A DNA stretch of 64,000 nucleotides from an uncultured Chloroflexia bacterium (lineage in GTDB: Bacteria > Chloroflexota > Limnocylindria > Limnocylindrales > CSP1-4). Of this stretch, positions 17,676 to 61,589 are shown piece by piece; position 1 is the first letter of the stretch, and every line of letters starts with the position of its first letter. The stretch spans positions 933,589-997,588 of the forward strand of contig CAVVAV010000003.1 in assembly GCA_963746405.1 (NCBI GenBank), read 5' to 3'. A model generated the notes under the pieces. The model searched no databases, had not been told where the DNA came from, and worked only from the letters and a program-made list of their open reading frames with translations. The translations under genes and the position numbers were made by a program.

Positions 17676-18609
17676 ATGACTGACACCGGAGGGAGACGAC
17701 CGCGTCGTCGCCACGACCCTTGGTCGGCCGATGGCGCGGTGGTTCCGCCGGGGCCCTCGACCGTGGACCTGCATGCTCATTCGACGCGGTCGGATGGGGT
17801 GCTGGAGCCGGCGGCGCTGCTCGAGGCCGTCGCGGCGGCGGGGGTTCGCACGTTCTCCCTGACCGACCACGACACCCTCGCCGGATACCGGGATGTGGCA
17901 AAGAGCGGTGCGATCCCGCAAGGGCCTGACGCTCATCCCGGGTGTCGAGATCAACGCGCTGGTCACCCGGGACCTTGGGCTGTGGGAAGGCGAGCTGCAC
18001 ATCCTGGGGTTCGGGATGGATCCCGACGACGAGGTGTTCGAAGCAGCTCTGGTCGCGCAGCGTCAGGCTCGGCGGATCCGATTCGACCGGACGGTCGCGC
18101 TCCTGCGGGAGCTCGGGCTCCCGATCGACACGCAGGTCGCGGCGCTCCAGGTCGGTGCCGACGATGCGCTCGGTCGACCCACCATCGCCCGGGCGCTCAT
18201 CGGGGCTGGGTTCGCGACCAGTGTCGAGGACGCGTTCAGCCGCCTGATCGGGCACGGGGCGCCCGGCTACGTCCGGCGCGAAGGGCTGGGCCCGGAAGCG
18301 GCCATCGAGGCGATCGCGGCCGCCGGCGGGATCCCGGTGCTCGCCCACTTCCGCGAGGCCTCCGCCCGGATCGATGTGGTGCGTGAGCTGGTCGAGGTCG
18401 GGCTGGGTGGTCTCGAGGTCTATTACCGCTCGTTCGACATGCCAACCGTCCAGGCCGCCGAGGCGGTGGCGGCGAGTCTCGGCCTCATCGCGACGGGCGG
18501 CAGCGACTACCACGGGGACCTCGGCCCGTACGCGGAGGCCCACGCCGCACTGTGGGTTCCGCCCGAGGTCGGCGAGCGGCTGGTGGAGACTCTGTCCGCC
18601 CAGGCCTGA
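17676..18609 (+). pseudogene. PHP-domain metal-dependent phosphoesterase, frameshifted near 17915
   Basis: N-part VDLHAHSTRSDG...LTDHDTLAGY in frame of ORF 17655..18386, C-part PGVEINAL...ELHILGF...GGSDYHG in frame of ORF 17893..18609; shift at CCC/GGG run. Confidence 0.7.
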
Positions 18610-18622
18610 ACGCCGAGGGCCG

Positions 18623-19393
18623 TCAGCTCGCCGGCGTGTCCGCCTTTTCCTTGACGAACGTCGGGTGGAGTTCCACCGGTGTCTTGCTCCGGCGTCGCAG
18701 GTTGAGGAACTCCACGAAGACGCTGAAGGCCATCGCCGCGTAGATGTAGGCCTTGTCGATGTGGAAGCCGAACCCGTCGGCGATGAGCGTGACCCCGATC
18801 AGGAGCAGGAACGACAGCGCCAGGATCTTGACCGACGGATGGTCATGGACGAACTTCGAGAGCGGGCCCGAGGCAAAGAGCATCACGCCGACCGCGAACA
18901 CGACCGCGACGATCATGACCGCCACCTCGTCGACCATGCCGACCGCGGTCAGCACCGAGTCGAGCGAGAAGACGATATCGAGCAGCACGATCTGCAGGAG
19001 CACACCGCGCAACGACGCCGTCCCGGCCGTCGTGGAAGCATGCGCCTCGGCACCCTCGAGTGACTCGTGGATCTCGGTCGTGGCCTTCCACAGCAGGAAC
19101 AAGCCACCGCCGATGAGGATGACGTCACGCCACGAGAAATCCCGATCGAACAAGGTGAAGAGCGGCTGGGTCAGGCCGATGATCCACGAGATCGTGAGCA
19201 GCAGCAGGATGCGCATGCCCATGGCCAGTCCGAGGCCCACAAGCCGCGCCTGATCGCGTTGATGCGCCGGGAGCCGCTGCACGAGGATCGAGATGAAGAT
19301 GACGTTGTCGATGCCGAGCACGATCTCGAGCACGGTCAGCGTCACCAGGGCGACCCAGGTCTCCGGAGAAGTGAACAGCGCCACAAGATCCAT
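18623..19393 (-). CDS. TerC family integral membrane protein
   Basis: Start at MDLV; LEIVLGIDNVIFISIL and second DxxD-type repeat; multiple TM. Confidence 0.85.
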   Translation of the reverse strand: MDLVALFTSPETWVALVTLTVLEIVLGIDNVIFISILVQRLPAHQRDQARLVGLGLAMGMRILLLLTISWIIGLTQPLFTLFDRDFSWRDVILIGGGLFLLWKATTEIHESLEGAEAHASTTAGTASLRGVLLQIVLLDIVFSLDSVLTAVGMVDEVAVMIVAVVFAVGVMLFASGPLSKFVHDHPSVKILALSFLLLIGVTLIADGFGFHIDKAYIYAAMAFSVFVEFLNLRRRSKTPVELHPTFVKEKADTPAS

Positions 19394-19443
19394 CGTGGGA
19401 GGATACCGGGCCGGCCGACGGTTCGGCGTACCATGGCGCGGCT

Positions 19444-24932: not shown

Positions 24933-27019
24933 CCGTCGAGACGACCGCGCCGCCACCGCCACCCGCCGCCCCCACGTCCGCCGCCCTGAAGGTGGAGGAC
25001 CTGTCGCTGGCCTACGTGGTCCGCGGGATCCGGCGGCCGGTCCTGCGCAATGTCTCGTTCGAGGTCCGCCCCGGCGAGTCGTACGGCCTCGTCGGCGAAT
25101 CGGGCTGTGGCAAGTCCACGACGGCCTACGCGGCCGTCCGCTACCTGCCGCGCAATGCCGTGATCACCGGCGGCCGGATCCTCGTCGCCGGCGACGACGT
25201 CACGAAGATGAACGACGAGCAGCTGCGCCGGTTCCGGATGCGGCACGCGTCGATGGTCTACCAGGACCCGGGGGCGGCGCTCAACCCGACGACCAAGGTC
25301 GGTCCACAGGTCGTCGAGGCGTTCACGATCCTGGGCCAGAGCGCCGAGCAGGCGCGCGAGAGCGCGCTCGCCTCGATGCGCCGGGTCCAGATCGCCGACC
25401 CCGAGCGGGTCTTCCAGCGCTACCCGCACCAGCTGTCGGGTGGGATGCAGCAGCGCGTCGTCATCGCGATCGCCCTCGCGTCCGACCCGAAGCTCCTCGT
25501 GCTCGACGAACCGACCACGGGCCTGGACGCCACGGTCGAGGCGAGCGTGCTCGACCTCGTCCGGACGCTCGTCGCCGATACCGATGCCGCGGTCCTCCTC
25601 ATCGCCCACAACCTCGGCGTCATCCGCACGATGTGCGACCGGGTCGGCGTGATGTACGCCGGCAAGATCGTCGAGGAAGGCAACGCGATCCAGGTCTTCG
25701 AGCGTCCGCAGCACCCGTATACGGTCGGTCTGCTCCAGTCGCTGCCGCGTCACGGGATCCGCAAGTCCGAGCGGCCGCTGACGACGATCCCGGGGACGCT
25801 GCCGCAGATCGGGACGCCGTTGCCGACGTGCGTGTACGTCGACCGCTGCCCGCTCGCGACCGACCTGTGCCGCGAGGTCGTCCCGCCGGTCGTCGACGTC
25901 GCCCCCGGCCAGTGGACCCGCTGCCACCACTGGGAGCGCATCGGCGAGCTCAAGCCGCCGCCACCCGGCGTCGGCCAGGCCCTCGTCGCGCAGGGCGACC
26001 TGACGCTGGACATGGCCAACGTGTCCAAGACGTTCCGCTCGTCCGGGCACGACGTTCCGGCGGTCGTGGGCGTGAACCTGCAGCTGCACGACGGCGAGAC
26101 GCTCGGGCTCGTCGGCGAATCGGGCTCGGGGAAGTCGACCCTGGCGAAGACGATCCTCGGCATCGAGAGCCCGGACGCCGGTGGCAGCCTGGAGCTCGAC
26201 GATCACGCCCTCGCGCCGCAATCGGGCGACCGGCCGACCGCGGACAAGCGGTCCATCCAGATGGTGTTCCAGAACCCGGATTCGGCGCTCAATCGGGGCT
26301 GGACCGCGCGGCACATCCTGGCGCGCTCGGTCGAGAAGCTGACCGGTCTGCGTGGGAAGGCGGTGAGCGAACGCGTCGACAAGCTCGCCGACGGCCTGCG
26401 GTTGACCCAGCGCCACCTCGATCTCAAGCCGCGTCAGCTGTCGGGCGGGCTCAAGCAGCGCGTGGCGATCGCGCGGGCGTTCGCCGGCGACCCGCAGATC
26501 GTCGTGGCCGACGAGCCCACGAGCGCGCTCGACGTCTCGGTCCAGGCCGCCATCCTGAACGTGCTCTCGGAGCTCCAGGCGAAGAGCCGGACGAGCTACC
26601 TGCTCATCTCGCACGACCTCGGCGTCGTCCGCTACCTGGCCGATCGGATCGCGGTGATGTATCTCGGGCGGATCATGGAGGTGGGCGATTCGGAAGCCGT
26701 GTTCCGCGGCCCGAACCACCCGTACACCGAGGCGCTCCTGTCCGCGGTGCCCAGCATCGATGGCGAGGACCGCGTGCGCATCCGCTTGCAGGGCGAAGTG
26801 CCGAGTCCCGCCAACCCGCCATCGGGCTGCGTCTTCCACACGCGCTGCCCGCGCGTGATCGCGGGCCTGTGCGAGGTGACCGAGCCGCCGCTTGCCGAGG
26901 TGGAGCCGGGACACCTGATGAGCTGCCACATCCCGCTCGAGGAGCTGCGCCGGCTGCAGCGACGGGATGCCCCGCCGCCGGTCCGTGACGAGGCCGTCCC
27001 GACCGAGCCGGAAGCCTAG
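24929..27019 (+). CDS. ABC transporter ATP-binding protein, fused tandem ATPase (DppD-DppF-like)
   Basis: Two Walker A (GESGCGKST, GESGSGKST), two LSGG signatures, oligopeptide-type C-terminal extensions. Confidence 0.9.
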   Translation: MTVETTAPPPPPAAPTSAALKVEDLSLAYVVRGIRRPVLRNVSFEVRPGESYGLVGESGCGKSTTAYAAVRYLPRNAVITGGRILVAGDDVTKMNDEQLRRFRMRHASMVYQDPGAALNPTTKVGPQVVEAFTILGQSAEQARESALASMRRVQIADPERVFQRYPHQLSGGMQQRVVIAIALASDPKLLVLDEPTTGLDATVEASVLDLVRTLVADTDAAVLLIAHNLGVIRTMCDRVGVMYAGKIVEEGNAIQVFERPQHPYTVGLLQSLPRHGIRKSERPLTTIPGTLPQIGTPLPTCVYVDRCPLATDLCREVVPPVVDVAPGQWTRCHHWERIGELKPPPPGVGQALVAQGDLTLDMANVSKTFRSSGHDVPAVVGVNLQLHDGETLGLVGESGSGKSTLAKTILGIESPDAGGSLELDDHALAPQSGDRPTADKRSIQMVFQNPDSALNRGWTARHILARSVEKLTGLRGKAVSERVDKLADGLRLTQRHLDLKPRQLSGGLKQRVAIARAFAGDPQIVVADEPTSALDVSVQAAILNVLSELQAKSRTSYLLISHDLGVVRYLADRIAVMYLGRIMEVGDSEAVFRGPNHPYTEALLSAVPSIDGEDRVRIRLQGEVPSPANPPSGCVFHTRCPRVIAGLCEVTEPPLAEVEPGHLMSCHIPLEELRRLQRRDAPPPVRDEAVPTEPEA

Positions 27020-27969
27020 CGGGCGAACGTCTCCAGCAGGAGGGCGAGGAACTTCGGGGCGTCCGCATCGAACGCGACGAACGCGTTCGGTTTTCGGCCG
27101 AAGCGGCCGCCGTGGTCGATGACCGTTCGTCCGATCGTCAGCTCACCGCGCGTCTCGACATCGACGTGTGCCGGCCGGCCGGCGACGACAGCGGGATCGA
27201 CCAGGTAGGCGATACACAGTGCGTCGTGGACCGGGGCGCTCTGCGGCGTGTCCATCGGCTGGAGATCGTCGTACGCCCGGATCCGCCCTTCGATGAAGGT
27301 TGCCGCGGCCCCGCCGGCCGGGGTGCCAAGCTCGCGCAGCTGCCGGCAGTCGTCGAGCGACACGAGAGCGCGATGGGTGGCGTCGAGCGGCATGACCGCG
27401 ACGTTCCGTAGACCCGCCCCGAACACGACCTTGGCCGCCTCGGGATCGACCCACACGTTGAACTCCGCCGCAGGGGTCGTGTTCCCGGACAGATGCGCAC
27501 CGCCCATGATGACGGTCTCGGGGATGCGGTCCACGATCCGTGGCTCCAGCCGGATCGCCATCGCGACGTTCGTGAGCGGGCCGACCGGAACGAGCGCGAT
27601 GGGCTCGGTCGTGGCCATGTAGGTCTCGACCAGGTACTCCACGGCCCGCCGGTCCTGCTTGACCGAGCGCGGGGCCGGGATCGGCAGCTCGCGTGGATGC
27701 ATGCTCCCTCGGGCGTGGACGACCGCGCGTGGGACCGGGAAATCGTCGCGGGCCATCGGCGTCGCTGCGCCCTCGTAGACGGGGATGTCGACGCCCAGGA
27801 GGTCGAAGACCCGGAGCGTGTTGTCTGTGCACGCGGCGACCGGGTTGTTGCCATTGACGGTCGTCGCCGCGATGAGCTCGAGGCCTGGGTGCAAGGCCGC
27901 CAGCATCAGCGCGACGGCGTCATCCGTGCCGGTGTCGACGTCGAGGATCAGCTTCTTGCGCGCACCCAA
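27016..27969 (-). CDS. Nucleoside hydrolase (IU-NH family)
   Basis: N-terminal DVDTGTDDAVAL aspartate cluster; 317 aa. Confidence 0.85.
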   Translation of the reverse strand: MGARKKLILDVDTGTDDAVALMLAALHPGLELIAATTVNGNNPVAACTDNTLRVFDLLGVDIPVYEGAATPMARDDFPVPRAVVHARGSMHPRELPIPAPRSVKQDRRAVEYLVETYMATTEPIALVPVGPLTNVAMAIRLEPRIVDRIPETVIMGGAHLSGNTTPAAEFNVWVDPEAAKVVFGAGLRNVAVMPLDATHRALVSLDDCRQLRELGTPAGGAAATFIEGRIRAYDDLQPMDTPQSAPVHDALCIAYLVDPAVVAGRPAHVDVETRGELTIGRTVIDHGGRFGRKPNAFVAFDADAPKFLALLLETFAR

Positions 27970-27981
27970 GCGAGCGGTCGC

Positions 27982-29837: not shown

Positions 29838-31825
29838 TCACAGGACTCTGCCGAGGGCTCGGCCCTCGAAGAACGCGAGGCTCGCTCGCCGGGGCGCAAC
29901 GCAATCGCCGATCTGGTGGAACGCGACTCCGGCCGCCGCGAGCCCGATTGACAGCGATGTCTCCGCGACGGGCGTTTCGGCGATGACCAGGGTGTCCGCT
30001 GCGAGGCGTTCCTCGACGCCCGTCTGCGTGGAGCTAACCGTCGCTCCGTCGGCGTCCCAGCCGAGGACCACGGTGTTCGGCCGCATGACGCCGCCGGCAG
30101 CCGTGAACCGGCTTCGGAGCGGTACGTCGGCCGCGCTGTGGAAGAGACCGCCGCCGACGACCGCGGCCGACGTGACGATCGTGACCTGGTGACCTGCCTC
30201 GGCCAGATGCAGTGCGGTCCCGAGGCCTCGCCAGTCACCCAGGTCGTCCAGGACGAGCACGCGGGAACCCGGACGAGCGGCGCCACCGAGCACATCGTGG
30301 ATCGAGACGGCGTCCGAACGTTCCGCGCCCGGCAAGCGGTCGACCATGGGCAGGGCCCGCTGGAAGCCGGTTCGTGGCGGCCGCGCCCCCGTCGCGAGCA
30401 CGACCTCGTCCACATCCGCGGCCGCGATGTCATCGGCCGTGGCCGCGGTCTCGAGCCGGACGGTGACCCCCAGATCCTCGAGCGAGCGCCCGTACCATGC
30501 CAGCAGGTCGCGGATCTGGTCGCGTGAGGGCTGACGACCGGCGAGCCGGAACTGTCCGCCGAGCTCGGCGCCTCGCTCCAGGAGCGTCACGTCGTGGCCA
30601 CGCTCGGCAGCGACCCTGGCCGTCTCCAGGCCGGCTGGACCCCCGCCGACGACGAGGACCCGCCGCGGAGCCACCGCCCGCGTGAACCGGTCACCGCCCC
30701 ACTCGAACTCGCGCCCGGCCGACGGGTTCACCAGGCACGAGATCCAGTAGTCCCGCGAGCGGCGTCCCCAGCACAGCTGGTTGCACGAGATGCACGGCCG
30801 GACCTCGTCGGCGCGATCGGCGCGTGCCTTGGCGACGAGGTGCGGGTCGGCGATCTGGCCGCGCACGATGCTAACCATGTCGGCCCCTCCGGCGGCCAGC
30901 ACCGCCTCGGCGGCGGCCGGGGTCCGGATGTGGCTTTCGGCCTGGACCAAGGCGTGCGTGACGACACGCTTGAGCGCCGCGGCGAACGGGACACCGAGCT
31001 GCTGCTCGTACAGCGACACCGGGATGATCGGGTAGAAGTCGAAGTACGAGCCCGTGCCGCATGTCACGTAGTCCATCGCGCGTCTGGCGTCGTGCCAGGC
31101 GACGATCTCGGTCAGCTCGTCGATGGACAGGGCAGGGGCCGAGCGCTCGTCAACGCTCACGGCCAGGCCGATGATGAAGTCGTCCCCACAGGCCGCCCGG
31201 ATCCGCTCGAGGATCGTCGCCGAGAAGCGCATCCGTCTCTCGAACGAGCCGCCCCAGCCGTCCGTCCGCCGGTTCGACCACGGGGTCCAGAACTGGTCGA
31301 CGAGCGCGTGGTACGCGGCGAAGACCTCGACGCCGTCGAAGCCCGCGTCCTGGGCGCGTCGCGCGCTCGCGACGAACCCGTCGATGACCTCGTCGATCTC
31401 GGCCTCGGTCATCGCGTGGCTGCCGTCGGCGTCGTGGTAGGACGGCAGCCCGGACGGCGACCAGTTCGGCGCGAAGGAGTTGTCCGCATCCCCGTGCTGG
31501 CCCACGTGGTACAGCTGCTGGATCATCACCACGTCGGGGTTCGCCTCGCGGCACGCGTCGGTCAGGCGGCGGAATGCGGGATGACGGCGTCGTCATCGTG
31601 GCGGAAGTTGCCTCGCGTCAGGACGGCGGTCCGGTGGACGGGCACCGGCTCCACGACGATCATCCCGGCGCCACCGAGGGCGCGCTCGCGGTAGTAGCCG
31701 ATGTGTCGATCGCCGGGCAGCCCGGCCTCGGCCATGTTCGCCGTGTGCGCCCCGAAATGTGATCCGGCTCGTCAGCGTCCTGATGGCGCAGCGTCGACGG
31801 GCTCGAACACGTGCGGGAAGGGCAT
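29838..31825 (-). pseudogene. FadH/TMADH-family Fe-S flavoenzyme (OYE-like TIM barrel + FAD/NAD domains), in-frame TGA at 31772-31774 and -1 frameshift near 31578
   Basis: N-term MPFPHVFEPVD...R*RAGSHFGAHT...GYYRERALGGAGMIVVE then QQLYHVGQ, 4Fe-4S motif CISCNQLCx11C, VLVVGGGPAGLE; aligns to E. coli FadH N-term by recall. Confidence 0.7.
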
Positions 31826-31845: not shown

Positions 31846-32776
31846 ATGGCCGACGCCCCACCGCTCGTCGTCGTCGCCGGTGCGACGGCGACCGGCAAGA
31901 CCGAGCTCGGGCATCCGGCTCGCGGAGGCGTTCATCGCGGAGGGCCGGCCCGCGACGGTCATCTCGGCCGATTCCCGGCAGGTCTACCGAGGGCTCGATA
32001 TCGGCACGGCCAAGGTGGGCGCTGCGGACCGGGCGCGCGTCCCGCACGAGGGACTGGATCTCGTCGATCCGCCGGAACGGTTCGCGCTGGCCGACTTCGT
32101 GGCGCACGCCCGTGGGGTCCTGACCGATCTGGCCGCGCGCGACGGCGTCGCCCTGCTCGTGGGGGGCACTGGGCTCTACCTGCGGGCGGTGGCGCGCGGG
32201 ATCGACCTCGAGGCGCTGCCCGACGACCCCGACCTGCGACAGCGGCTGGAGGTGGAGCTTGCCGCGACCGGGCTGCCGGCGCTCGCCGAACGCCTCGTGG
32301 CGACGGCCCCGACGCTCGCGGCGCAGACCGACACGGCCAATCCCCGCCGGGTCCTCCGCGCGCTCGAGATCGCCGAGCTCCGCGGCGACGGCCCGCGACC
32401 GGCCCCGCGCGGTTACGACGGTCCCGTCGCCTGGATCGGGCTGACCCTCGATCGAGCCGAGCATGAGCGTCGCATCGCCGCCCGCGCCCGACGGCAGTTC
32501 GACGACGGGCTGATCGAGGAGGCCGTCGCCCTGCGCGAACGCTACGACCCAGGCCTGCCGGCGTTCTCCGCGATCGGGTACCACGAGGCATGGGACGTGG
32601 CGGACGGCCGCACGCACGCTCGAGGAAGCCCTCGCGACCGACGCGCACGCAATGTGGCCTTCGCAAAGCGCCAGCGAACGTGGTTCCGCAGCGAGCCCGA
32701 CATCGCGTGGCTGGACGGTACCGAGGCCGACCCGCTCGAACGGGCCCTCGCGCTCGCCCGCACCGCGACCAGATGA
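31846..32776 (+). pseudogene. miaA: tRNA dimethylallyltransferase MiaA, +1 frameshift near 31910 (GGG run)
   Basis: P-loop N-term MADAPPLVVVAGATATGKTELG in frame of ORF 31759.., remainder IRLAEAF...SADSRQVYRGLDIGTAKV... in frame of ORF 31811..32776. Confidence 0.75.
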
Positions 32777-34808: not shown

Positions 34809-34837
34809 ACGCCGCGGTCCGGCGCTTCAGCGAGGCC

Positions 34838-36982: not shown

Positions 36983-36988
36983 CCGGCG

Positions 36989-45264: not shown

Positions 45265-45265
45265 C

Positions 45266-46510: not shown

Positions 46511-46539
46511 AGCGGCCATCCAGGCCCTGCGAAGGCTCT

Positions 46540-47289: not shown

Positions 47290-48219
47290 TTAACGAGTCC
47301 TCGTTAGCGCTCTAGCGAGTGCTTCCGTGATCCGTCCGTTATATGTATCGTCGAGAAAGAGCCACTGTCCGTTTGGATTCGCTTCGAGAAATACGCTCTC
47401 GCCGCTGCGGCTCACAATCCAGTCTTGGGATGAATACCCGAGCCCGAGGGCGCTCGCCACACGCAGCGCATCGTCGGCAACTCTTGGATGGGCACCATCG
47501 GCCACGACAAAGCGTTGATGATTCTCGGTCTTGAGCCGCCAATCGAGATCCTCGGTGGTTAACGCGGCTACGAAAGCCGCGCGTTCGACTGTTACCACGC
47601 GTAGGTGTGTGGATGCCTCCATGAGCTCTTGCAGGATTACTGGTACTCCGCCGAGGTCACGAAGCTGCTCAGGCCCGACCTCCGTTGTGAACGCGACCCT
47701 GGGAGGATCGTTCGAGACCAGCCCGTAGCGAATTGGCTTAACCACAACGCGACCATGATCGCGAACAAATCGCCGTGCGCGCCGTGCGTCTGACGTAACA
47801 ATTGTCTTGGGAATTCGAAGCCCGAGTGAGTTGGCAACCGCGAGCTGGTAGCCCTTTACCTCTGACCGCTGCAAGACGTGCGGAGGGGTGAGCCAGTCCA
47901 CAGTCGTGTGGGCCGCGAACATCAGCGTTTCGCGCCACTCTTGAATGACAAACTCGGAATACAGACTGTCAACGTCGTCGACTACCACGCGACCGGGCCG
48001 CCTCCAGAACCCGCGCGTTGTAGCGTCTATGAGATGTCGGTTCCCAACGATCCAGTGGGGTGGATCAGGCGTCCAATAGAAAGACGCGGAAGCCAACGTA
48101 TCCCTGGACAACCGAATCGTTCGAGCGCCTAGGCGAAAGAGGGCCTGCTCAAGCGCGTCGCCATGTTCATCCGAGGGGGCCGATACTAGGAGGACTTCAG
48201 CCCCAGCTGGGCTCGTCAT
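47290..48219 (-). CDS. ATP-grasp enzyme, RiPP-maturase-like (graspetide/microviridin-type)
   Basis: 309 aa; LDWR and FLEANPNGQWLFLD motifs recalled from MdnC/ATP-grasp ribosomal peptide maturase families; low GC. Confidence 0.65.
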   Translation of the reverse strand: MTSPAGAEVLLVSAPSDEHGDALEQALFRLGARTIRLSRDTLASASFYWTPDPPHWIVGNRHLIDATTRGFWRRPGRVVVDDVDSLYSEFVIQEWRETLMFAAHTTVDWLTPPHVLQRSEVKGYQLAVANSLGLRIPKTIVTSDARRARRFVRDHGRVVVKPIRYGLVSNDPPRVAFTTEVGPEQLRDLGGVPVILQELMEASTHLRVVTVERAAFVAALTTEDLDWRLKTENHQRFVVADGAHPRVADDALRVASALGLGYSSQDWIVSRSGESVFLEANPNGQWLFLDDTYNGRITEALARALTRTR

Positions 48220-48436
48220 CAGTCGTCTCAGGAGGCTGGCTCCTGGTCAATCTCGTACCGCCAGGGACCTCGCCAGGAACTGATCTAGCAACCCTAGCCA
48301 GCAATGGGAGTCCTCCTCCCACGACTAGGTCAATCGCTGTCAGCCCGGGGTCATCCGATGTCTCGGCTGTCTTGGTGAAGACGGTTTGGCCTTCCGCGTG
48401 GCCTTGGACCTCAACTGAGATCTTTTCGAGGATCAT
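48197..48436 (-). CDS. Candidate precursor peptide/small ORF upstream of ATP-grasp
   Basis: Only ORF in the 345-nt gap; G-rich SD upstream; MILEKISVEVQGHAEGQTVFTKTAETSDDPGL rich in T/S/K and D/E; 3' part rare-codon, may be non-coding. Confidence 0.25.
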   Translation of the reverse strand: MILEKISVEVQGHAEGQTVFTKTAETSDDPGLTAIDLVVGGGLPLLARVARSVPGEVPGGTRLTRSQPPETTDDEPSWG

Positions 48437-48565
48437 GTGTCGCACTCCCGTGCTCCCTCCCCCGTCGCCGGCAGCGTCGGGCCGTCAATCCAGAGTCTAT
48501 CGACCGAACAGTCGGTTTGTACACACTCGCCACTCTGCTCGTGACTGATCCAATACGAATTGCAG

Positions 48566-50888
48566 CTAGGCGAGGTAGGAGCGGACTCTTCCGGGTGCGT
48601 ATAGAAAGCGATCAATCGACGCCGATACGTTGTAGTAGTACGGCGGATGCTCGATGTAGTTCGCCAGAAGCGCCTCGAGGAACGCGGGATCAGCGCGCTG
48701 GGTGATGACAGCCACGGCCGCGACCCGGATTTGTGCACTCTCGCTGTGGAGGAGCGCCTCGAACTCTGAGATAGGCACGTTGCCGTCGGCGCCTAGCGCC
48801 TGAACCGCCGCGTGGACAAGCTCTGCGTCGGCGCTCCCCAGGAGCGAACGCGCAAACTCCGTGCCCCCAAGCCGAAGACTCGCTGCGGTCAATGCTTCAC
48901 GCTCTTCGTCCATCGTGAGCCTCGCGGACTCTGCGAGCAACGGCGCATCACGACGCTCTCCAACCAATGCTAGGGCGGTTGCCACGTCAGCCTTCGCGGA
49001 CCGATTGATGTGCTCCAGGGCCTGTCGGATGAGGTCAATGTCGTCGGCGCCTCGCACGTCGGGGGAAAGCCGAGCGAGCAATTGCGCGGCGGCATTAGTT
49101 CGGCGCCCGTAGAGATAGCCGAACACGCTCTTCTCACCAGCCAGCGCCGGTAGCTCCGCAGCCGCCGAAGAGGCCCACTCATCCTCTGTCTGGGACAGGA
49201 GTTGGCGCGCTTCGTCCGCCATCGACTCGCCGTCCAGCCACGTCAAGGCCTCCCATGCCTCGTGATCAAGCGCCGACCCAGCGGACCGACGCAACTCATC
49301 AAGGGGGATGCTCATTGCCATTAGGCGCGGCCTGAGCGCGGTCGCCCATGGGCTTCGTTCATCGACGAGCCGATCCAAAAGCTGTTGTGCCAAGACTCTC
49401 CGAGCGTCGACGTAGTCCAGGACAAGGTTGGTCAGGTCGGAACTCGCGTCGTCCACCGCGTTGGCAAGCTGATCAACACTACAATTCCCCCGGTTCAGCA
49501 ACTCAACCAGCGCTGCCCGTCGCAACGGAGTCTTTATGCGCCGCTTGATCAGGTTCGCGAGATCGACGTCGTCCAGCAGGGCGACGTCCCGCTGGAGGAG
49601 TTCGCGAGCCCATGGCCTAATGTCGTATCTGTCGCCGATCGCAACGGCCACAAGTGGACTGTGGTCGCCTTGAAAGGCTGCTCTAAGCGCTTGGACATCC
49701 GCGGTGCCGACGTCGTCGGGTGCCCCCTCGACGATTGCACGCAATAGCCCCTCGTCATGCCGCTCGGCCAGACCTGCCAAGTACTTGGTTGCGTTCATCG
49801 AGCGCAATGGATCGGCAAGCAGCTTCACCCATCGCTCGGCCTTTTCGGCCAGTTCTGATTGCGTCGTTTCGTCGTTCGCCCAAAGGTCGCGCGGTCGCAC
49901 GGACATGATGTTGAGCAGACGCAGCGCGCCCCGCGCCGCGGTCAAGTCGTCGCCTTGGGCCATCGCCGCGAGCCGCCTCTCCAAATCGGCTTCTCCGACA
50001 ATTGCCCAACCCGGCACGACCAATTCTGCGACGTCCTCGGACGCGAAATCTGTCGCGAGTGTCTTGAGCCACTGCTCGGCTTCGCCCACGATCAACGAGA
50101 TCTCTGCATGACGACGGTACAGACGGTTCACCACGTGGGTGGGCAAGGCGTCCCCGTTGCCAATTGCGATCGAGAATAGAAGTAGGCGGTCAGGATCAAG
50201 CGAGGTGGAGGGTCGGTCACCGGCGACGACGCGTCGGAATCCATCGAGAACGTCTGTGATCTGTTCCTGTGCTGATCTGCGCTCGCTGTCGGGGTCCTCC
50301 TCTTGCGAACTGGTCGGACGCCCTGCGGCGGAATCGCCGGAGTCGGCAGGGGCGGCCGTAGGTCCGGGAGCGGTCCGGCCTTCCGTCACGGCGCGATCTG
50401 TGACCACGCCCACGAGGTACGCGACGAGCTGTCTATCTAGATCAGGAAGCGAATCGAACTCGCGATACAACGCAAGCTGCTCGTCGCGGATTCGTCCCCG
50501 AAACTCAAGCACACGCTGCAGCCTGCGGACCGGCGTCAGCCTCCTCGCCTTCGAGAAGGCGTTTGAAGAAGAGTCCAATAGCCGGGGTGTGCGCCGTGGC
50601 TCGCCTTCCGACGACTCGTTCGAACTCTTCGGCGAAACCGGAATCGTTAGCCCCGGTATTGGACCCCCACCGTCGGTGAAGTAGCCCGACAAAGATGTCG
50701 CAAGAATCCACCAACGGGTTGATCAGGTCCTGTGGACGACCGAGGTCCGGGGCAACTCGCTCCCAACCGGTTACGCGAATTCGAACGCCCAGACTGACGC
50801 CGCACATTTCCACGACGCGGTCCGCCACAACGCGCACCAAAGCGCGTTCCTCGGGAAGATCACCTGGTGAAGCGATGAATAGTTCCAA
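48566..50888 (-). pseudogene. DUF4062 N-domain + HEAT/ARM-like repeat protein, frameshift near 50533
   Basis: N-term MELFIASPGDLPEER (DUF4062-like, ORF 50505..50888) continues in other frame into 708-aa ORF with C-terminal HEAT-like repeats. Confidence 0.55.
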
Positions 50889-50934
50889 CTCAATTGCCTC
50901 GGTGACCAGCGTTCATCCTCCTACACCCACGGCC

Positions 50935-51225
50935 CTAATCGAGGTTGGCTAGTCCGTTTCCCGATGGCGTTGTCTTATCTTCGGGCCTCGTCGTGGTCGC
51001 TAGCTCTGGCCACAATCGTCTTTGGAATCCGCTTTCGGCTGGCAGCGCGAGATGGCCATCTTGTCGTCCCTCCTTCGCGCTCGTCCTGAAGTCGCACTTG
51101 GGAAGCCCGGGCCCAGCCGGCCCCACCGTACCTGGGGTTCCAGGCGGGTCGGAGCAGGGCCAGCAGAAACCGGCGACGAGTCGAGCGGACACGCCGGTCG
51201 CCGCCTGGGCCGCGAAACCGATCAC
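50935..51225 (-). pseudogene. Relic fragment of DUF2075-like gene
   Basis: AAQAATGVSARLVAGFCWPCSDP...KCDFRTSAKEG vs AQAATGATARLVAGFCWPWSDP...KSDFWASAKEG in 52553..54478; ~70-nt DNA identity; high-GC patch. Confidence 0.6.
51147..51214. repeat. ~70-bp dispersed repeat copy A (matches 53042..53110)
   Basis: CAGGGCCAGCAGAA(A/G)CCGGCGACGAGTCGAGCGG...GCCGCCTGGGC shared. Confidence 0.7.
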
Positions 51226-52494
51226 TTCCGCTTCACGGCGTCAGCGACGATATCAAGCAGCCGTTTCACCAGATCATTTCCGTCGTCAGCTGTACTTCCA
51301 GCTACTGGCGCTGTGAGAAACGACCGTTTAGCGAGGTCATACTTGAGCTCGTTACGCTTCTCGTCGTCGAGCAACGCGACGAAGGGATCAAGCGCGGTGA
51401 GGTCGAGTTCCGACTTTCGAGCGCGCCACTCGGTCTGCCGGTGGCGGCCTGACTCTGCGAGTGCATAGAGACCGATGCCGAGAAGAGGCAGCGCGACAAG
51501 CAGCCTGCCTGTTAGCCATTGCAGTGTGAACTCTGTGGCGCCGGTAGTGACGATTGTGAAGACTCCCCAGGCGGCAATAGCGACGAAGAGACCGATGCCG
51601 ACCCATCGCCACCGGTCGGCGGCCTTGTGCTCGGATTCGGCTTGGCCCAGATAACCCCCGCTCGCTGCCTCCGCACCCAGGGCACTTAAGACCTTCCGCG
51701 CGTCGTCGCGGGACGCCGTCATGTCTTCGAGCAGGGTTTCAGCGCCTGCGCGGAGCTCCTCCGCGGAAGTGCTTGCAAGTTCACGCTGCTCGGTCATGAA
51801 CGTGGCGTGTTCCTCGGCCGCGCGCGCAGTCTGCTGTCGCGAACTGCTCAGCCCGCTGCGACTCCGCTGTGGAGAACTGTGACTGGAACTGGGCAATCGC
51901 CGCGTCAAGCCGGCTCTTCTGGTTCGAGATCTCAGCCGTCAACTCCGTCTGCCTTGCCGCCAGGGGCGCGAGAGCGGACTGGGCCTCTGCCGTGGCCTGA
52001 TCTACGAGCTGTTCGATCTCGGAGCGCACTCGTGCAAGGGCTTGCTCAAGTTCCGCCGCTCGGTCTCGGTTTCGTCCTGCTTCACCGCGGAGGTCCTCCA
52101 GAACCTCCTCCACGTCCCGCCGAAGCGCCGCGATCGTCTGCCGTGCTTCGCGAGCCGGGCGCTGTAGCCAAGTCGTGAGGGCGTCGAGGACTTGCTCGAG
52201 GTAAGCGTTCGCACTGGTGAGCTGGGCGGCGTCGCCGGACGAGACGTACGCGCTTGTCGCGTTCTGAACCTGGCTGAGTGCAGGCGAAGGTGCGTCGATG
52301 ATTCGCGCCGACAGAAGTTGGGGATCCGCGCTGAGAATGATCGCGCGGGCGACTTCGATACCTGCCCTGAGTCGCTGCTGGTCGTCCCGTTCTTTGTCGG
52401 ATTTGGGGTCCGGCAGTTTGCTCAGAAGTTCGACGAGGGCACGCGTTAGTGCGACCGTCTGACTGCCAGCATGCCGGTCACGCCACTCACTCAT
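51222..52494 (-). pseudogene. Coiled-coil protein with two C-terminal TM helices, frameshift at (GC)n ~51817-51826
   Basis: ORFs 51781..52494 and 51222..51908 join into Q/A/E-rich coiled coil then WRWVGIGLFVAIAAWGVFTIV and LLVALPLLGIGLYALA TM. Confidence 0.5.
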
Positions 52495-52552
52495 CGCAGC
52501 GCCTTACAGAGCGGGAGGGTCCGCAGATAGCGCGGGGTATAGGCGGCACGAG

Positions 52553-54478
52553 CTACTCCTCGTACGTCGCGGCAGCTTGCGCTGCCATATGAGTGTCCGT
52601 GGTTGCGAGTTCCGTTCGGCTCAGGAAGAAGTCGCGCGTCGGGGCGTCCATGAAGTAGACGTAGCAGCCGCGGAGACCGCGGGTCAGCAGGACGCGGTAG
52701 GTGCTCTTGACGTAGCGGGTGAACTCGGCCTCGGTGACGCCGCGGCGGACGACGCGGTCGTGCGACTGGTCGCGCTGGCCGACCCATCCCCCGTCCATCG
52801 GCCGGTAGACGAGGTCGGGGCCGACGATCACGCCGACGTAGTCGAACTCGAAGCCCTGCGCCGTGTAGACGCAGCCCACCTGGTCGATCCCCTCCTTCGC
52901 GCTCGCCCAGAAGTCCGACTTCGGGATGCCGGGGCCGAGCCGGCCGACGCCGTCCCTGGCGTTCCAGGGCATCGACCACTCCCCTACCCTGACGTCCGGC
53001 ACGAGCTGGCCGTCGTCGTCGGGGTCGGACCAGGGCCAGCAGAAGCCGGCGACGAGTCGAGCGGTCGCGCCGGTTGCCGCCTGGGCGCGGATCTTCTGCT
53101 CGAGCTGGCCGATCGAGCCGACGATCTGGAAGTCGAACTCGTCGTCCATCGACCAGAGCACCTGCGGCGTCCGGTTGAGCTCGAGCGTGTTGTCGACCCA
53201 CTGGATGAACGAGTCGGAGCCGTTCGAGCGGAACTGCGCCTCGAGCTTGAAGTCGCGCACCTCGATCGAGCGCTTGGCGGCCTCCTCGCGGATCAGGTCG
53301 GTGCTGCCGACCTCGCCCGGGCGCACGACCTGCAGGTCATCGATGAAGAAGACGGTGACCCGGCTCGAGTCCAGGATGTCGTCGATCTGGGACTTGCCCG
53401 TGCGCGCCTTCGCGGGCGTGAAGCGGCTCGTGCTGATCGTCCGGATGCGGTGGGCCTCGTCGAGGATGGCGACGTCGAGCTTGTCGGTGACGGTCGCGGT
53501 GTCGCGGAAGTACTTGAACAGCGCGCCGGCTCGACCGCCGACGATCTTGCGCAGGTTCTCCGTGAACGCCTTGGAGCCGGTCAGGTGGAGCGTGCTGAGG
53601 CCGCGCTCGGCGAGCTCCGCGACGAGGTTGAGGGCGATGACCGACTTGCCGGTGCCCGGGCCGCCTTCGATGAGGAAGATGACGTTCTGCTCGTTTGTGC
53701 CCGCGTGGCCGACGGCGTCGAGGATGGCGTTGTAGGCCACGAGTTGTTCGTCGAGGAGCACGAAGGTCGGCTCGATGCGGATGACGCGGGCGACGTGGTC
53801 GAGCAGGCGCTTGTGTGGCTTGAACGCAGTCGCGGCGACGCGCTCCAGGATCTCGCCCTCGTCCGGGCCGGCGATGTGCTGATCGAGGAACGTCGCGAGC
53901 GCATCGGACTGGTCGCCGGCAAACGCGGGGTTGGAACCAAGGAGCGCCGTGAAATCCGCGTGGTAGAGCGGAGACATCGGGTCGTGCTGCGCGTAGTGAA
54001 GGTACGCGCAGGCATCGAGGGCGATCGCGCGGTCGTCCGAAAACGCGGGATGGGTATCCAGCAGGTACCGCTGGTACTGCGCGACCTGGCGCGACGGGTG
54101 GAGCGTGTCGCGCGGCTTGCCGCCGTAGTCGACGGTGACGCAGTCGGTGATGTTCGACCGGCCGACTTCGGTCCACTGCTTGAGCTCGACGATCACGGCC
54201 GCGTCGCGGCGCGTGTCGGGGTTCGAGCCGGTGATGAGGACGTCAAGCCGCTTCGAGCTGAGCGGCATCTTGAGTTCGACGAGGATGCCCTGATCGGTCA
54301 GGTCGGCCGTCTGGAGCACGTGGGCCATCGCGCTGAGGCTGTTGCGCCAGCTCGTGACTTCGCTCGGAGATGGTCGGTAGCGGAACTCGTCGAACCAGCG
54401 GTCGCTCAGCATGTTGGCGAGCCGAGCCTGGGTTGCGTCCGCGATGAACTGCCGGGTCGAGCCCTGGTAGAGGTGCAA
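52553..54478 (-). CDS. DUF2075-like protein: N-terminal PD-(D/E)xK-like (NERD-type) segment + SF1-like P-loop ATPase
   Basis: ILVELK / VIVELKQW segments; Walker A IEGGPGTGKSV; Walker B LDVAILDEAHRI; TTG start with G-rich SD. Confidence 0.65.
   Translation of the reverse strand: MHLYQGSTRQFIADATQARLANMLSDRWFDEFRYRPSPSEVTSWRNSLSAMAHVLQTADLTDQGILVELKMPLSSKRLDVLITGSNPDTRRDAAVIVELKQWTEVGRSNITDCVTVDYGGKPRDTLHPSRQVAQYQRYLLDTHPAFSDDRAIALDACAYLHYAQHDPMSPLYHADFTALLGSNPAFAGDQSDALATFLDQHIAGPDEGEILERVAATAFKPHKRLLDHVARVIRIEPTFVLLDEQLVAYNAILDAVGHAGTNEQNVIFLIEGGPGTGKSVIALNLVAELAERGLSTLHLTGSKAFTENLRKIVGGRAGALFKYFRDTATVTDKLDVAILDEAHRIRTISTSRFTPAKARTGKSQIDDILDSSRVTVFFIDDLQVVRPGEVGSTDLIREEAAKRSIEVRDFKLEAQFRSNGSDSFIQWVDNTLELNRTPQVLWSMDDEFDFQIVGSIGQLEQKIRAQAATGATARLVAGFCWPWSDPDDDGQLVPDVRVGEWSMPWNARDGVGRLGPGIPKSDFWASAKEGIDQVGCVYTAQGFEFDYVGVIVGPDLVYRPMDGGWVGQRDQSHDRVVRRGVTEAEFTRYVKSTYRVLLTRGLRGCYVYFMDAPTRDFFLSRTELATTDTHMAAQAAATYEE
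53042..53110. repeat. ~70-bp dispersed repeat copy B
   Basis: See 51147..51214. Confidence 0.7.
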
Positions 54479-54526
54479 CCCCTCCCCTTCCCCGATGGGC
54501 CGCCGTGACGGTCGACGACGTGGTGA

Positions 54527-55582
54527 CTATACGGCCTGATCCGACGGCGGATCCGCCCCCGCGCTGCCAGACATCGGCGTGGTCTTCCCCTCCCCGTCTC
54601 GATTCGTCATCGAGCCTTTATCGCGGCCCGGGCGCGCTGCCCATGGTCCCGTCGCCGGGGCGAGGGTCGTCTCGATGCGGCGCCCCAAGCGATCGACCTC
54701 CGCGACGTCGATCGCGGGCGGAAGCGCTCGGATGCGGGCCAGCAGGTCCGTGTGCGACGTCAGCGTGACACCGGCGATCGACTTGGGGCCGAACAGCCCG
54801 AACTGACCGCCCACGACGCAGATAACGCACTCCACGTGCTCGACCGACAGTGCGGCCCTCAGCGACGCGGCCTGCCGCTCGACCTGCTCGACGAATGTCG
54901 TCGCCCGATGACCCTTCAGGAACAGCTCTTTGCCCCGGACGCGGACGTCACCCGCGTAATGCTTCGTCTCGATGACGATGACGCCGGGCGGGCCAACGAC
55001 GATGTGGTCGATGTTGTCGCGGCCACCCGGCCGGCGCCGGTCGTGGAAGACGTGGAAGCCATCCGCCTCCAGCATGGCGAGTGTCCGCCCGATCTGCTCC
55101 TCGCCAGCCGCACCGATGCGCCAGGCCAGCACATCCGGTGGTTTGGCATACAGCTCGGCGAGGGTCCACGCGAGGCCGGCGAAGATCAGGGCAACGCCGA
55201 GGAGCGGCAGAGTAGACCCTTGTGGCACGAGGGCGATCCCCGCGAGGATCATGACGCCCCCGACGGCGAGGATGTCGGGCCGGCGCCTGCGTATCCGAGC
55301 CTCATGCGCCGCCAGCCGACGCTCATACGTCGCGCGTGTCGAACCGCCCGCCCGTGGCGACTCGATCGCCGTGGTCATGGCCGTGATCGGCGGGGTCGGC
55401 GCCGTTCCGTCCACCGCGGTCTCGAGCGCGCGTGTGCCCCGGCAGGTCGGGAAGTGTGAGCACCCCCAGAAGGCAGCGTCGTCGGCGCGCCGGGTGCGCA
55501 GGATCATGGACGATCGGCAGCGCGGACATATCGGTGGTTCCGACTCAGTCCCGCTCCGTGCAGTCGCCGGCTGGGCGGCCAT
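54527..55582 (-). CDS. NERD-domain protein with N-terminal C4 zinc ribbon and two TM helices
   Basis: Start [11 protein letters not shown] after GGGGGAGGGGAG; CPRC...CSHFPTC zinc ribbon (topo-type); NERD motif [20 protein letters not shown]. Confidence 0.7.
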
Positions 55583-59427: not shown

Positions 59428-59434
59428 CCTGACT

Positions 59435-59797
59435 ATGGCTCGATACACCTTCACGACGCACATCGGGGCCCCGCCTGAGCACGTGTTCGCGCTCTGGACG
59501 AATGTCGAGCGCATGGGCGAATGGGTCGGCGGGGTGACCGGCGTCAGCGACTTGTCGGGGTCCGTCGATCAGGTAGGCACCACCTACGTCGTCCACTTCG
59601 GCCCGGTGAAGAGCCCGACGGAGGTTCTCGAGGTCGAGGGCCCGCGGCTGTTTTCCACGAGGTTCGGCAGCTGGATCCTCCGTGGTCGGTCGAGCGCGAC
59701 CTTCGAACCGGACGGAGGCGGCACGCGGGTCACGCAGACGCTCGAGACCGTCGGCCTGATCTCGGCGATCTCGTCGTGGGTCTTCTCCCGCGGCTAG
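59435..59797 (+). CDS. SRPBCC family protein
   Basis: 120 aa; MARYTFTTHIGAPPEHVFALWT. Confidence 0.6.
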   Translation: MARYTFTTHIGAPPEHVFALWTNVERMGEWVGGVTGVSDLSGSVDQVGTTYVVHFGPVKSPTEVLEVEGPRLFSTRFGSWILRGRSSATFEPDGGGTRVTQTLETVGLISAISSWVFSRG

Positions 59798-59861
59798 TAC
59801 GAGGGAAGCTTTCGCGACGAGCTCGAGAAGTTCGCTCGCATCGCCGAGCGCGAGCGTCCGG

Positions 59862-60541
59862 ATGGGTGACCCGGCCATCATCGATGGCGGGGCGTTCGAC
59901 CACGTGATCCTGGCGACACTCGATGCCGAGGCAACCGCGGCTCGTCTGCGTCGGGATTTCCGTTTGGGAGCGATCAGAGGCGGGTCGCATCCATGGGGCA
60001 CGGCCAACTTGATCGTGCCGCTCGAGCCGCCGACGTATCTCGAGATCCTCTACCCGGAGCATCCCGATCGACTCGTCGAGGACCCGGAGGGCAAGGAGCT
60101 GCTCGATCGGATGCGCCGTGGCGAGTTCTGGGCCGGCTGGGCGCTGCGCCCCGCGGCGATCGAGGATCTCGCGCAGCGACTCGACCTCGACGTTGAAGTC
60201 GGGCAGGCGACGCGGCCCGATGGCTCGGTGTCGTCCTGGCGCAGCGCGGCACCGAAAGCCGACATCGACGGTTCCCTCCCCTTCTTATCGATTACGACGA
60301 CCCAGCCGACCGGCTCGAGCGATTCTCAGCGAGCTACGCGGCGGCGGGCCATGAGCGGAGGGTCGGCTCGGTCGCTTGGATCGAGATCGAGCTTGAACCG
60401 GAAGCCGACGGGGCATGGATCCTTGACAGACTCAAGGCAGACATCGAGGTCCGGGTTGTCATGGGTACTTCGTCGGGCATCCGCGCCGTGGGCCTCCACG
60501 TGGATGATCAGGTGATCACGCTTCGGGCCGGGGAGCGGTGA
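59862..60541 (+). pseudogene. Glyoxalase-like (VOC) domain protein, -1 frameshift near 60283
   Basis: FDHVILATLD...GSHPWGTANLIVPL...YLEIL then other frame LIDYDDPADRLERFS...VAWIEIELE. Confidence 0.6.
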
Positions 60542-60565
60542 TGGTCCTCGACACCGACCGGTGGG

Positions 60566-61589
60566 TCAGCGCCAGCCGAGGCCCGGAGCCACGTACCTGA
60601 GGATGCTCTCGATCGCGTGGGCGTTGTACTCGACGCCGAGCTGGTTCGGGACGGTCAGCAGCAGCGTGTCGGCGGCCTGGATGGCGGTGTCGCCGGCGAG
60701 CTCCTTGACGAGGACGTCGGGCTCCGCGGCGTAGGAGCGCCCGAAGATCGCCTTCGTCTGCGCGTCGATGTAGCCGACCTTGTCGGTCTCCTCGTTGCCG
60801 CGACCGAAATACGCCCGGTCCCGATCGTCGACCAGCGCGAAGATGCTGCGACTCACCGACACCCGCGGCTCGCGCTGGTGCCCCGCGGCCGTCCATGCCT
60901 CGCGGAACAGGCGGATCTGCTCGGCCTGGAGCTCGTGGAACGGCACACCGGCGTCTTCGGTCAGCAGGGTCGACGACATCAGGTTCATCCCCTGCTGGCC
61001 CGTCCATTGGGCGGTCGCCCGGGATCCCGCGCCCCACCAGATGCGCTCTCGCAGGCCCGGCGAATGCGGCTCGAGGCGGAGCAGTCCGGGCGGGTTCGGG
61101 AACATCGGCGTGGGGTTCGGCTGGGCAAACCCGACCCCGGACAGGGCCTGCAGGAACACCTCCGTGTGGTCGCGCGCCATGTCCGCGTCGGTCTTGCCTT
61201 CCGGCGGGCGCGTAGCCGAAGTAGCGGAAGCCGTCGATGACCTGCTCGGGCGAGCCGCGGCTGATCCCGAGCTGCAGCCGACCACCGGCGATCAGATCAG
61301 CCGCACCGGCGTCCTCGACCATGTACAGCGGGTTCTCGTAGCGCATGTCGATCACGGCCGTGCCGATCTCGATCCGCTTCGTCCGCGCCCCGATCGCCGC
61401 CAGGAGCGGGAACGGCGACGCGAGCTGCTGCGCGAAGTGGTGGACGCGGAAGTAGGCGCCGTCGGCCCCCAGATCCTCGACGGCTTCCGCGAGCTCGATC
61501 GATTGGATGAGCGCGTCGGATGCCGAGCGCACCTGGGAGTACGGCGAATCGGACCAGTGTCCGAACGAGAGGAATCCGATCTTCTTCAC
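60566..61589 (-). pseudogene. LLM-class flavin/F420-dependent oxidoreductase, +1 frameshift near 61200 (GG run)
   Basis: N-part KKIGFLSFGHW...RIEIGTAVI...FRYFGYAPA in ORF 60516..61595 frame; C-part EGKTDADMARDHTEVFLQAL... in ORF 60566..61285 frame. Confidence 0.7.

Follow-up and report, generated by a model that had tools for sequence, protein, structure and literature searches.

Results

Broken genes and their repair

The window, which is the whole 64,000-nucleotide stretch of DNA that was analysed, contained 12 single-base indels (9 insertions and 3 deletions, ~19 indels per 100 kb) and 1 point nonsense codon, and 8 of its ~58 genes (14%) were broken in an otherwise gene-dense sequence. To fix the positions of the lesions, the DNA was aligned with that of a syntenic relative, and intact orthologs were aligned to it with a frameshift-aware protein-to-DNA method. 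When 9 bases were taken out and 3 were put in, the encoded proteins were colinear with the orthologs and of the same length. The database gene calls of the source contig (1,568,495 bp in NCBI and ENA) were exactly the fragments seen in the window. The remaining scanned genes with a Pfam family match showed full or near-full domain coverage. The in-frame stops at 27984 (MttB/nucleoside hydrolase), 45668 (PIN/SDR) and 47290 (ATP-grasp/membrane protein) were rejected as lesions and assigned to ordinary gene boundaries. No further stops were found downstream of the shifts in the broken genes of the window, and the coding density was undiminished. The window came from an uncultured soil bacterium of 70% GC, which, from the names on the homolog matches, appears to be a Limnocylindria-like member of the Chloroflexota.

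The initial annotation had counted seven frameshifts and one nonsense codon. All seven frame switches were present within ~10 nt of the positions it gave, and the continuity across the frames that it had noticed was borne out, with a single Pfam match or a single BLAST alignment crossing each repaired junction. Its total fell short of the 12 indels and the TAG at 59795-59797, since a +1/-1 pair in miaA, three insertions in a reductase gene as such, and the TAG itself had been missed. The lesions were gathered in local clusters, including 7 indels within 1.07 kb in the reductase gene and miaA, and the lesions at 59795, 60288 and 61205 within 1.4 kb. Neighbouring genes were hit together, namely the DUF4062 gene with a coiled-coil gene, and the SRPBCC gene with the Glyoxalase_3 and LLM genes.

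The OYE and miaA genes

The OYE/2,4-dienoyl-CoA-reductase-like gene (29838..31825, minus strand), previously described as FadH/TMADH-like, carried four indels, including one deletion at ~31572-31581 and three insertions at ~31757, ~31782 and ~31795, and each of five different references gave the identical four events. The repaired protein was 661 aa, most of the listed orthologs were 659-661 aa at 79-88% identity, and the Pfam Oxidored_FMN match (2-342/342) ran in one uninterrupted stretch. The TGA at 31772-31774, which had been read as a nonsense codon, was present but was not a point nonsense. It was located inside ~40 nt read out of frame between the three 1-nt insertions, and arose because these insertions shift the frame. 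Read in the original frame, 21 of the 22 residues of the shifted segment were identical to those of orthologs.

Three indels were found in miaA (31846..32776, plus strand): an insertion at ~31909-31912, directly past the P-loop, and an insertion at ~32612 and a deletion at ~32647 that formed a compensating pair 35 nt apart. The repaired protein was 309 aa, the same as the miaA product of the related assembly L083, and the Pfam IPPT match covered 1-242/243. After correction, 8-9 of the 11 residues in the 35-nt out-of-frame segment were identical to orthologs; this 11-codon segment was RTLEDAVATDA in L083 and STLDEAVATDA in the related assembly L001, and started with R/S in the window.

The SRPBCC, Glyoxalase_3 and LLM genes

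The SRPBCC (Polyketide_cyc2) gene (59435..59869, plus strand), absent from the earlier list, contained the in-frame TAG at 59795-59797. An ortholog with 78% identity (L088) had TCG (Ser) at this codon with identical flanking residues, and reading through the stop raised the Pfam coverage from 1-109/142 to 1-142/142. By this comparison, the TAG is a true point nonsense codon, TCG to TAG. In the Glyoxalase_3 gene (59862..60541, plus strand), one base was missing at ~60288, which was probably the G of TTG ATC. The repair, based on Pfam and the frame switch, gave one Pfam Glyoxalase_3 stretch (1-170/176) through the junction; a JGI locus from the LLM match (L087) was rejected as a reference for this gene, as it was not syntenic with the window. 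The luciferase-like monooxygenase (LLM) gene (60566..61589, minus strand) had one extra base at 61202-61208, where CC was read as CCC. The insertion was placed at 61202/61208 with five references, the Pfam Bac_luciferase match crossed the junction, and the repaired protein of 340 aa had the length of orthologs at 95-97% identity.

The PHP gene and the defence-like island

The PHP-domain gene (17676..18609, plus strand) had one extra base at ~17919-17925, placed at 17919 by the frameshift-aware aligner, and the Pfam PHP match crossed the junction. Its L001 ortholog was a single ORF, which was aligned with residues 19-307 of the repaired window protein in one HSP at 84% identity.

The DUF4062 and helical-repeat gene (48566..50888, minus strand) and the gene of a coiled-coil protein with two transmembrane segments (51222..52494, minus strand) were located in an island with a foreign GC content of 62% and PADLOC-type hits. 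In the DUF4062 gene, one extra base was placed at 50522 with all four homologs (773-793 aa). The repaired protein was 773 aa, and its residues 1-765 were covered by a single tblastn HSP against L081/L082; the sole database entry was a 634-aa fragment from the source contig. Extra events at ~50330-50368, seen with 1 of 4 references in a low-complexity linker, were dismissed as alignment noise. The one extra base of the coiled-coil gene, near a (GC)4 stretch, was placed by the aligner within 51783-51839. The C-terminal fragment matched the C-terminal halves of ~410-425 aa proteins, and a single HSP over the junction aligned residues 137-423 of the repaired 423-aa protein with P0300 (424 aa).

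Sequence context of the indel sites

The lesions had been ascribed to short G/C runs or (GC)n, for which the evidence was weak. No run at the resolved sites was longer than 3, several sites were outside any run, and none of the 80 runs of at least 5 bases in the window was hit by an indel. In this window of 70% GC, 34% of the bases were in G/C runs of at least 2 and 11% in runs of at least 3. At the (GC)4 site, the change was of a single base and not of a 2-nt unit. Over the 28 indel sites of three assemblies, the motifs CGCA and GCGC were enriched about threefold (11 observed, 3-4 expected), but this was marginal after multiple testing and was not relied on as an explanation; an association with GATC, which by eye fitted 2 of the 12 sites, was dropped.

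Selection and essential genes

The codon changes of the window lineage were mostly synonymous, with synonymous to nonsynonymous counts of 52 to 14 in OYE and 34 to 3 in miaA, and of 10 to 1 in the 120 OYE codons that carry the four indels. The intact neighbours were alike (TerC 14 to 1, miaB 72 to 21 and HflX 52 to 8), and N/(N+S) was 0.21 in OYE and 0.08 in miaA compared with 0.07-0.57 in intact neighbours. In OYE and miaA, the dN/dS-type check suggested for the split genes spoke against decay, with no relaxed selection detected in the window lineage. This test was informative for these two genes; five genes with a single lesion each lie beyond its reach.

As the initial annotation had noted, no lesion was present in recA, rny, ruvB, miaB, hflX and the EF-G-like gene. 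Its lean towards genuine pseudogenisation on this ground fails because its essential set made up only 17% of the window and could escape by chance (P = 0.10 if the 12 events are independent, P = 0.39-0.47 for 4-5 clusters). The chance escape of a broader housekeeping set had P = 0.03-0.31. No avoidance of essential genes beyond chance was found in the window with the former set. A restriction to non-essential genes was therefore indistinguishable from chance, and OYE, LLM and miaA were highly conserved in the lineage, where they had hundreds of orthologs of 80-96% identity.

Lesions in related assemblies

The closest relatives of the source contig were MFD Nanopore MAGs. Relatives were scanned for lesions with the proteins of L083 as reference. 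In L001, a Microflora Danica Nanopore MAG, 12 lesions (11 insertions) were found in TerC, miaB (four), an ABC substrate-binding protein (three), a permease, an ABC ATPase and OYE. L086, an ENA assembly taken as long-read from its Flye-style contig names, had 4 insertions, in miaB, MttB, miaA and a PALP gene. Every compared gene was intact in the JGI/Logan assemblies L083, L084 and L085, which are presumed from naming and source to be short-read assemblies; they were 100% identical over the compared genes and are treated as three assemblies of a single population. The lesion positions differed among the window, L001 and L086, and the insertion bias was common to them (24 insertions to 4 deletions). 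None of the window lesions was shared by relatives, which were no closer than ~88-96% protein identity. The searched collections contained no other assembly of this strain, their best relatives being 88% (OYE) and 96% (LLM) identical. L001 and L086 were rejected as a same-strain control pair, as their DNA identity was only 92.7%.

Discussion

Our comparisons of sequences indicate that the lesions are probably errors in the consensus of a metagenome assembly from long reads and not mutations in the organism, with a probability of about 0.83, and the broken genes look like a data-quality issue rather than decaying genes. The source assembly, as we infer, would be long-read and most likely Nanopore-only, and leftover single-base insertions, with few deletions and one substitution, would have outlasted the polishing of the consensus. 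Such errors would gather in few local patches, possibly through poor coverage or basecalling, or through mixed strains, and gene callers would then cut the affected genes into fragments. The initial annotation had also considered sequencing or assembly error at homopolymers; the error is supported by the evidence, but not as classical homopolymer error, and the position of most sites outside homopolymers, unlike the textbook Nanopore error, counts against our reading. Lesions in adjacent genes could also be produced by the loss of co-functional gene clusters, and defence genes are often inactivated.

If all lesions were genuine and very recent, eight genes would be in the course of being lost and selection would shield the essential ones. 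The presence of the lesions in the deposited sequence, the unhit essential genes and the lesions in adjacent genes (DUF4062 with coiled-coil; SRPBCC with Glyoxalase_3 and LLM) would agree with this, yet it is very unlikely, since the sparing is expected by chance, OYE, LLM and miaA are conserved in the lineage, and the same lesion type occurs in miaB and MttB of related long-read-style assemblies. Neutral decay that collects 7 indels should add far more substitutions than indels, mostly nonsynonymous, so that 7 indels in 1.07 kb with no nonsynonymous excess are incompatible with gradual neutral decay. Bacteria are usually described as deletion-biased, and the 9 to 3 excess of insertions is opposite to this; 14% of broken genes would also be extreme for a dense, free-living-type genome. 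Equally improbable is a very recent burst of real single-base insertions in a free-living, high-GC, Chloroflexota-like soil bacterium, possibly brought about by a mutator state or by error-prone repair in local patches. It would have inactivated conserved genes such as miaA and the lineage-wide OYE reductase, and the frame would have been partly compensated within the genes. Real lesions would make the window an unusual case, in which genes of a free-living soil bacterium were inactivated rapidly and with a bias to insertions, but the evidence points the opposite way.

A mixture, in which most indels (especially those in OYE and miaA) are assembly errors and one or few lesions are genuine mutations or population variants, is unlikely, though less so than wholly genuine lesions. 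The candidates would be the TCG-to-TAG change in SRPBCC, a substitution and as such an error class other than indels, and the insertions found singly in two genes (DUF4062 and coiled-coil) of the defence-like island, which has a foreign GC content and PADLOC-type hits. Genes of defence islands have a rapid turnover, and single lesions are out of reach of the selection test. However, the candidate sites are indistinguishable from the others and share their local clusters (59795, 60288 and 61205), and the reading frames past them remain uninterrupted and match the orthologs in length. Programmed recoding or phase variation, by ribosomal or transcriptional slippage or at contingency loci, was effectively refuted: some sites adjoin short runs (GGG, CCC and (GC)4), but there is no conserved shift site because every compared ortholog reads through unshifted, no tract is long enough to slip, the (GC)4 change is not by its repeat unit, the longest runs are untouched, and the mechanism would be needed in eight unrelated genes.

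With consensus error as the preferred reading, the finding is mainly a caution on data quality. About 14% of the window genes, miaA and lineage-conserved oxidoreductases among them, would appear in an annotation as pseudogenes or split proteins, and metabolic or "genome decay" inferences from the assembly would be wrong.

Compensated frameshifts in functional genes resemble the +1/-1 pair of miaA and the three insertions within 40 nt of OYE, which regain the frame. The shifted segments of the window differ in that they still encode ortholog-like peptides in the old frame and one of them holds a stop, and the compensation restores nothing because each gene keeps an uncompensated shift. Pseudogenes of reductive evolution, as in Mycobacterium leprae and Leifsonia xyli subsp. 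xyli, are similar in having frameshifts and stops in many genes with intact housekeeping genes. Unlike them, the window showed no relaxed selection, coding-density loss, downstream stops or deletional bias, and its lesions were not common to the relatives compared (~88-96% protein identity at the closest).

Nanopore bins below ~40x require polishing (PMC9262707), the MFD long-read catalogue was built from Nanopore data only with Flye and one Medaka round (PMC12313526), and high-coverage mock data had ~4 indels per 100 kb (PMC13087279). The rate in the window is above that of the mock data, and similar to or below those of L086 and L001. The window differs from the usual Nanopore errors in its sites mostly outside long homopolymers, its 3 to 1 ratio of insertions to deletions and its strong clustering. 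It resembles the frameshift-truncated calls of Nanopore-only metagenomes, a problem that the IDEEL test measures (PMC9262707, PMC13087279, PMC12007338), in that single-base indels split intact conserved genes, and its source, like such assemblies, is a megabase-scale contig of an uncultured soil lineage.

Single-base lesions and their repair

The frame switches were viewed in three-frame translations and then pinned by two approaches, DNA alignment against L001 (a syntenic locus from a Microflora Danica (MFD) Nanopore MAG, its ABC ATPase sharing 76% protein identity with that of the window) and a purpose-written frameshift-aware protein-to-DNA aligner with intact orthologs as queries. All seven frame switches claimed in the initial annotation were confirmed in the translations, and the lesions are truly present in the sequence as given. 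A total of 12 single-base indels, including 9 insertions and 3 deletions, were located. The PHP gene carried +1 at ~17919; OYE, the gene first called FadH/TMADH-like, -1 at ~31575 and +1 at ~31757, 31782 and 31795; miaA +1 at ~31909, +1 at ~32612 and -1 at ~32647; the DUF4062 gene +1 at 50522; the coiled-coil protein gene +1 within 51783-51839; Glyoxalase_3 -1 at ~60288; and the luciferase-like monooxygenase (LLM) gene +1 at 61202-61208. The TGA at 31772-31774, previously read as a nonsense codon, was present but lay where the OYE insertions shift the reading frame, and was not a nonsense substitution. A true point nonsense had been overlooked, TAG at 59795-59797 in an SRPBCC/Polyketide_cyc2 gene, where the ortholog in locus L088 has TCG between identical adjacent codons; when this stop was read through, the Pfam match extended from 1-109 to 1-142 of 142. 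The natural stop of the SRPBCC gene overlapped the start of the glyoxalase gene.

After single bases were taken out or put in at the indel sites, each repaired protein gave a single unbroken match spanning the junction, in agreement with the continuity across frames described initially. Repaired OYE (661 aa) matched Oxidored_FMN over 2-342 of 342, and most of the 120 listed orthologs were 659-661 aa long, at 79-88% identity. Repaired MiaA (309 aa, equal to that of L083, a JGI locus) matched IPPT over 1-242 of 243, and in its corrected 35-nt shifted segment 8-9 of 11 residues matched RTLEDAVATDA (L083) or STLDEAVATDA (L001). The Bac_luciferase match of LLM crossed the junction, and the repaired protein had the length of its orthologs (340 aa; 95-97% identity). 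Glyoxalase_3 was matched in a single stretch (1-170 of 176). Single HSPs were obtained for PHP with L001 (residues 19-307), DUF4062 with the homologs in loci L081/L082 (residues 1-765) and the coiled-coil protein with P0300, a 424-aa homolog (137-423). Three database proteins (P0001, P0086 and P0299), all from one 1,568,495-bp contig in NCBI and ENA, were 100% identical to window fragments, and the gene calls of the deposited source record were already split into the fragments.

Distribution and sequence context of the lesions

Seven indels fell inside 1.07 kb, which was reached in none of 200,000 simulations, and three more lesions lay inside 1.4 kb at 59.8-61.2 kb, so that lesion positions were clearly non-random; a local depth drop, basecalling context or mixed strains could cause this clustering. 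The placement at G/C runs or (GC)n reported initially was weak, because a few insertions did lengthen a run from 2 to 3 but several fell between unlike bases, such as GTCG[A]CGCT and CGCCA[T]CAGG (compared with two references). One deletion dropped a lone G and another turned GG into G. None of the 80 runs of 5-6 bases in the window was affected, and 34% of window bases lie inside G/C runs of at least two. The insertions at 31909, 31782 and 32612 looked as if two alternative alleles had been entered one after the other (GG[G][C], CA[T][C] and [A][C]GC); at 31909 and 32612 L083 and L001 each have one of the two bases, and at 31782 the C allele alone was seen, in L083. Such insertions could be a mixed-strain consensus, which is a lead only, or may be coincidence at degenerate codon positions.

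Lesions in related assemblies

The lesions of relatives were counted with reference proteins of L083 (a 164-kb JGI contig). Over the compared genes, L084 (from another JGI sample) and L085 (assembled by Logan from an SRA run) were 100% identical to L083. The three therefore count as separate assemblies of a single population, in which every compared gene was intact. L001 contained 12 lesions, 11 of them insertions, in TerC, miaB (four), a substrate-binding protein (three), a permease, the ABC ATPase and OYE. L086 (ENA ERZ25039550, "contig_13695", a Flye-style name) contained four insertions, in miaB, MttB, miaA and a PALP gene, and its gene calls showed the resulting fragments. No indel was common to the window and L001 or L086, nor to L001 and L086. 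The insertion bias was common to all three "contig_"-type or megabase assemblies (24 to 4 in total), which argues that lesion type follows the kind of assembly, with the sequencing technology presumed for the source and for L083-L086, and not the importance of the gene. CGCA and GCGC k-mers were marginally enriched, about threefold, over the 28 indel sites of these assemblies. One-nucleotide insertions in miaB lay within ~10 nt of each other in L001 (5397, codon 276) and L086 (20304, codon 273). A systematic basecalling context, perhaps methylation-linked, may lie behind the miaB and k-mer pattern.

Gene content and the low-GC island

The window is gene-dense (70% GC), with ~58 genes by GC3 frame analysis and Pfam scans, including hisA, an EF-G paralog, yebC-ruvCAB, tgt, recA-recX, rny, ymdB, miaB, an oligopeptide-type ABC transporter, mttB, the OYE-type reductase, miaA, hflX and several oxidoreductases; homolog names, where given, were Chloroflexota or "Candidatus Limnocylindrales". 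Compared with L083, the window has an additional inosine-uridine nucleoside hydrolase gene (27019-27981) between the ABC ATPase gene and mttB, and an additional block (34800-41270) between hflX and the PALP gene, with a PMT_2-type membrane glycosyltransferase, a sulfatase-like protein, a methyltransferase and a metallo-beta-lactamase-fold protein. The region 44790-45667 contains a probable small antitoxin gene followed by a PIN-domain (VapC-like) gene (~45250-45667); in L083 and L088, too, PIN genes lie near syntenic genes and have an HTH or Phd antitoxin gene as partner.

The minus-strand island at 46.4-55.4 kb (46400-55400; 62% GC) looks like a defence island. It encodes a membrane protein (46543-47289), a protein judged ATP-grasp-like by visual inspection (47293-48246), which had no match in Pfam or PADLOC, the DUF4062 plus helical-repeat protein, the coiled-coil protein with two transmembrane segments, a Schlafen-group-3/DUF2075 helicase (52556-54526) and a NERD plus zinc-ribbon protein (54530-55399). 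In PADLOC, the N-terminal part of the DUF4062 protein matched PDC-S60, and the helicase matched the PDC-S41, Nhi and AbiO-like models. In L081, the DUF4062 homolog (45% identity) adjoins a CAP12/PCTIR TIR gene.

Discussion

Residual consensus error in a presumably long-read metagenome assembly is the best explanation of the lesions, with a probability of roughly 0.83. The initial annotation had leaned to genuine pseudogenisation, given that lesions seemed limited to dispensable genes. This restriction carried little meaning: the essential set (EF-G, recA, rny, miaB, hflX, ruvB and ABC ATPase) takes up 17% of the window (11.1 kb), and the probability that it is missed by chance is 0.10 with 12 independent events, 0.22 with 8 and 0.39-0.47 if the lesions are counted as 4-5 clusters. 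Nor were the hit genes obviously dispensable, since orthologs of OYE and LLM number in the hundreds (80-96% identity) and miaA was kept in all relatives examined; miaB, counted as essential, carries lesions in relatives.

Three to four real indels in a gene would imply long neutral evolution. In a codon alignment of the window, L001, L086 and L083, window-unique changes were counted where the other three agree. The synonymous and nonsynonymous changes were 52 and 14 in OYE (10 and 1 in its first 120 codons, which hold four indels) and 34 and 3 in miaA, against 14 and 1 in TerC, 72 and 21 in miaB, 52 and 8 in HflX, 39 and 4 in MttB and 62 and 21 in the ABC ATPase, all intact. Window-specific amino-acid change (OYE 3.5%, miaA 2.9%) was in the lower half of the 0.8-12.5% range. 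The two multiply hit genes resembled their intact neighbours, and the relaxation expected of pseudogenes was not seen in them. Seven indels per kb without substitution excess do not fit neutral decay and fit indel-dominated consensus error. Wholesale pseudogenisation is unlikely, and a mixture in which most lesions are errors and one or a few are real variants is slightly more probable, but still improbable. Programmed recoding or phase variation was excluded for practical purposes, because all compared orthologs read straight through and slippery tracts were absent.

The MFD long-read catalogue was built from Nanopore data only, with Flye assembly and a single Medaka round (PMC12313526). Nanopore bins below ~40x require short-read polishing for HiFi-like quality, and gene calls become frameshifted through consensus indels (PMC9262707). 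Frameshift truncations in soil data are commoner in ONT than in HiFi assemblies and "in general ... will be errors" (PMC13087279). At ~19 indels per 100 kb, the window exceeds high-coverage mock data (roughly 4 per 100 kb), but its rate is similar to or below those of L086 and L001.
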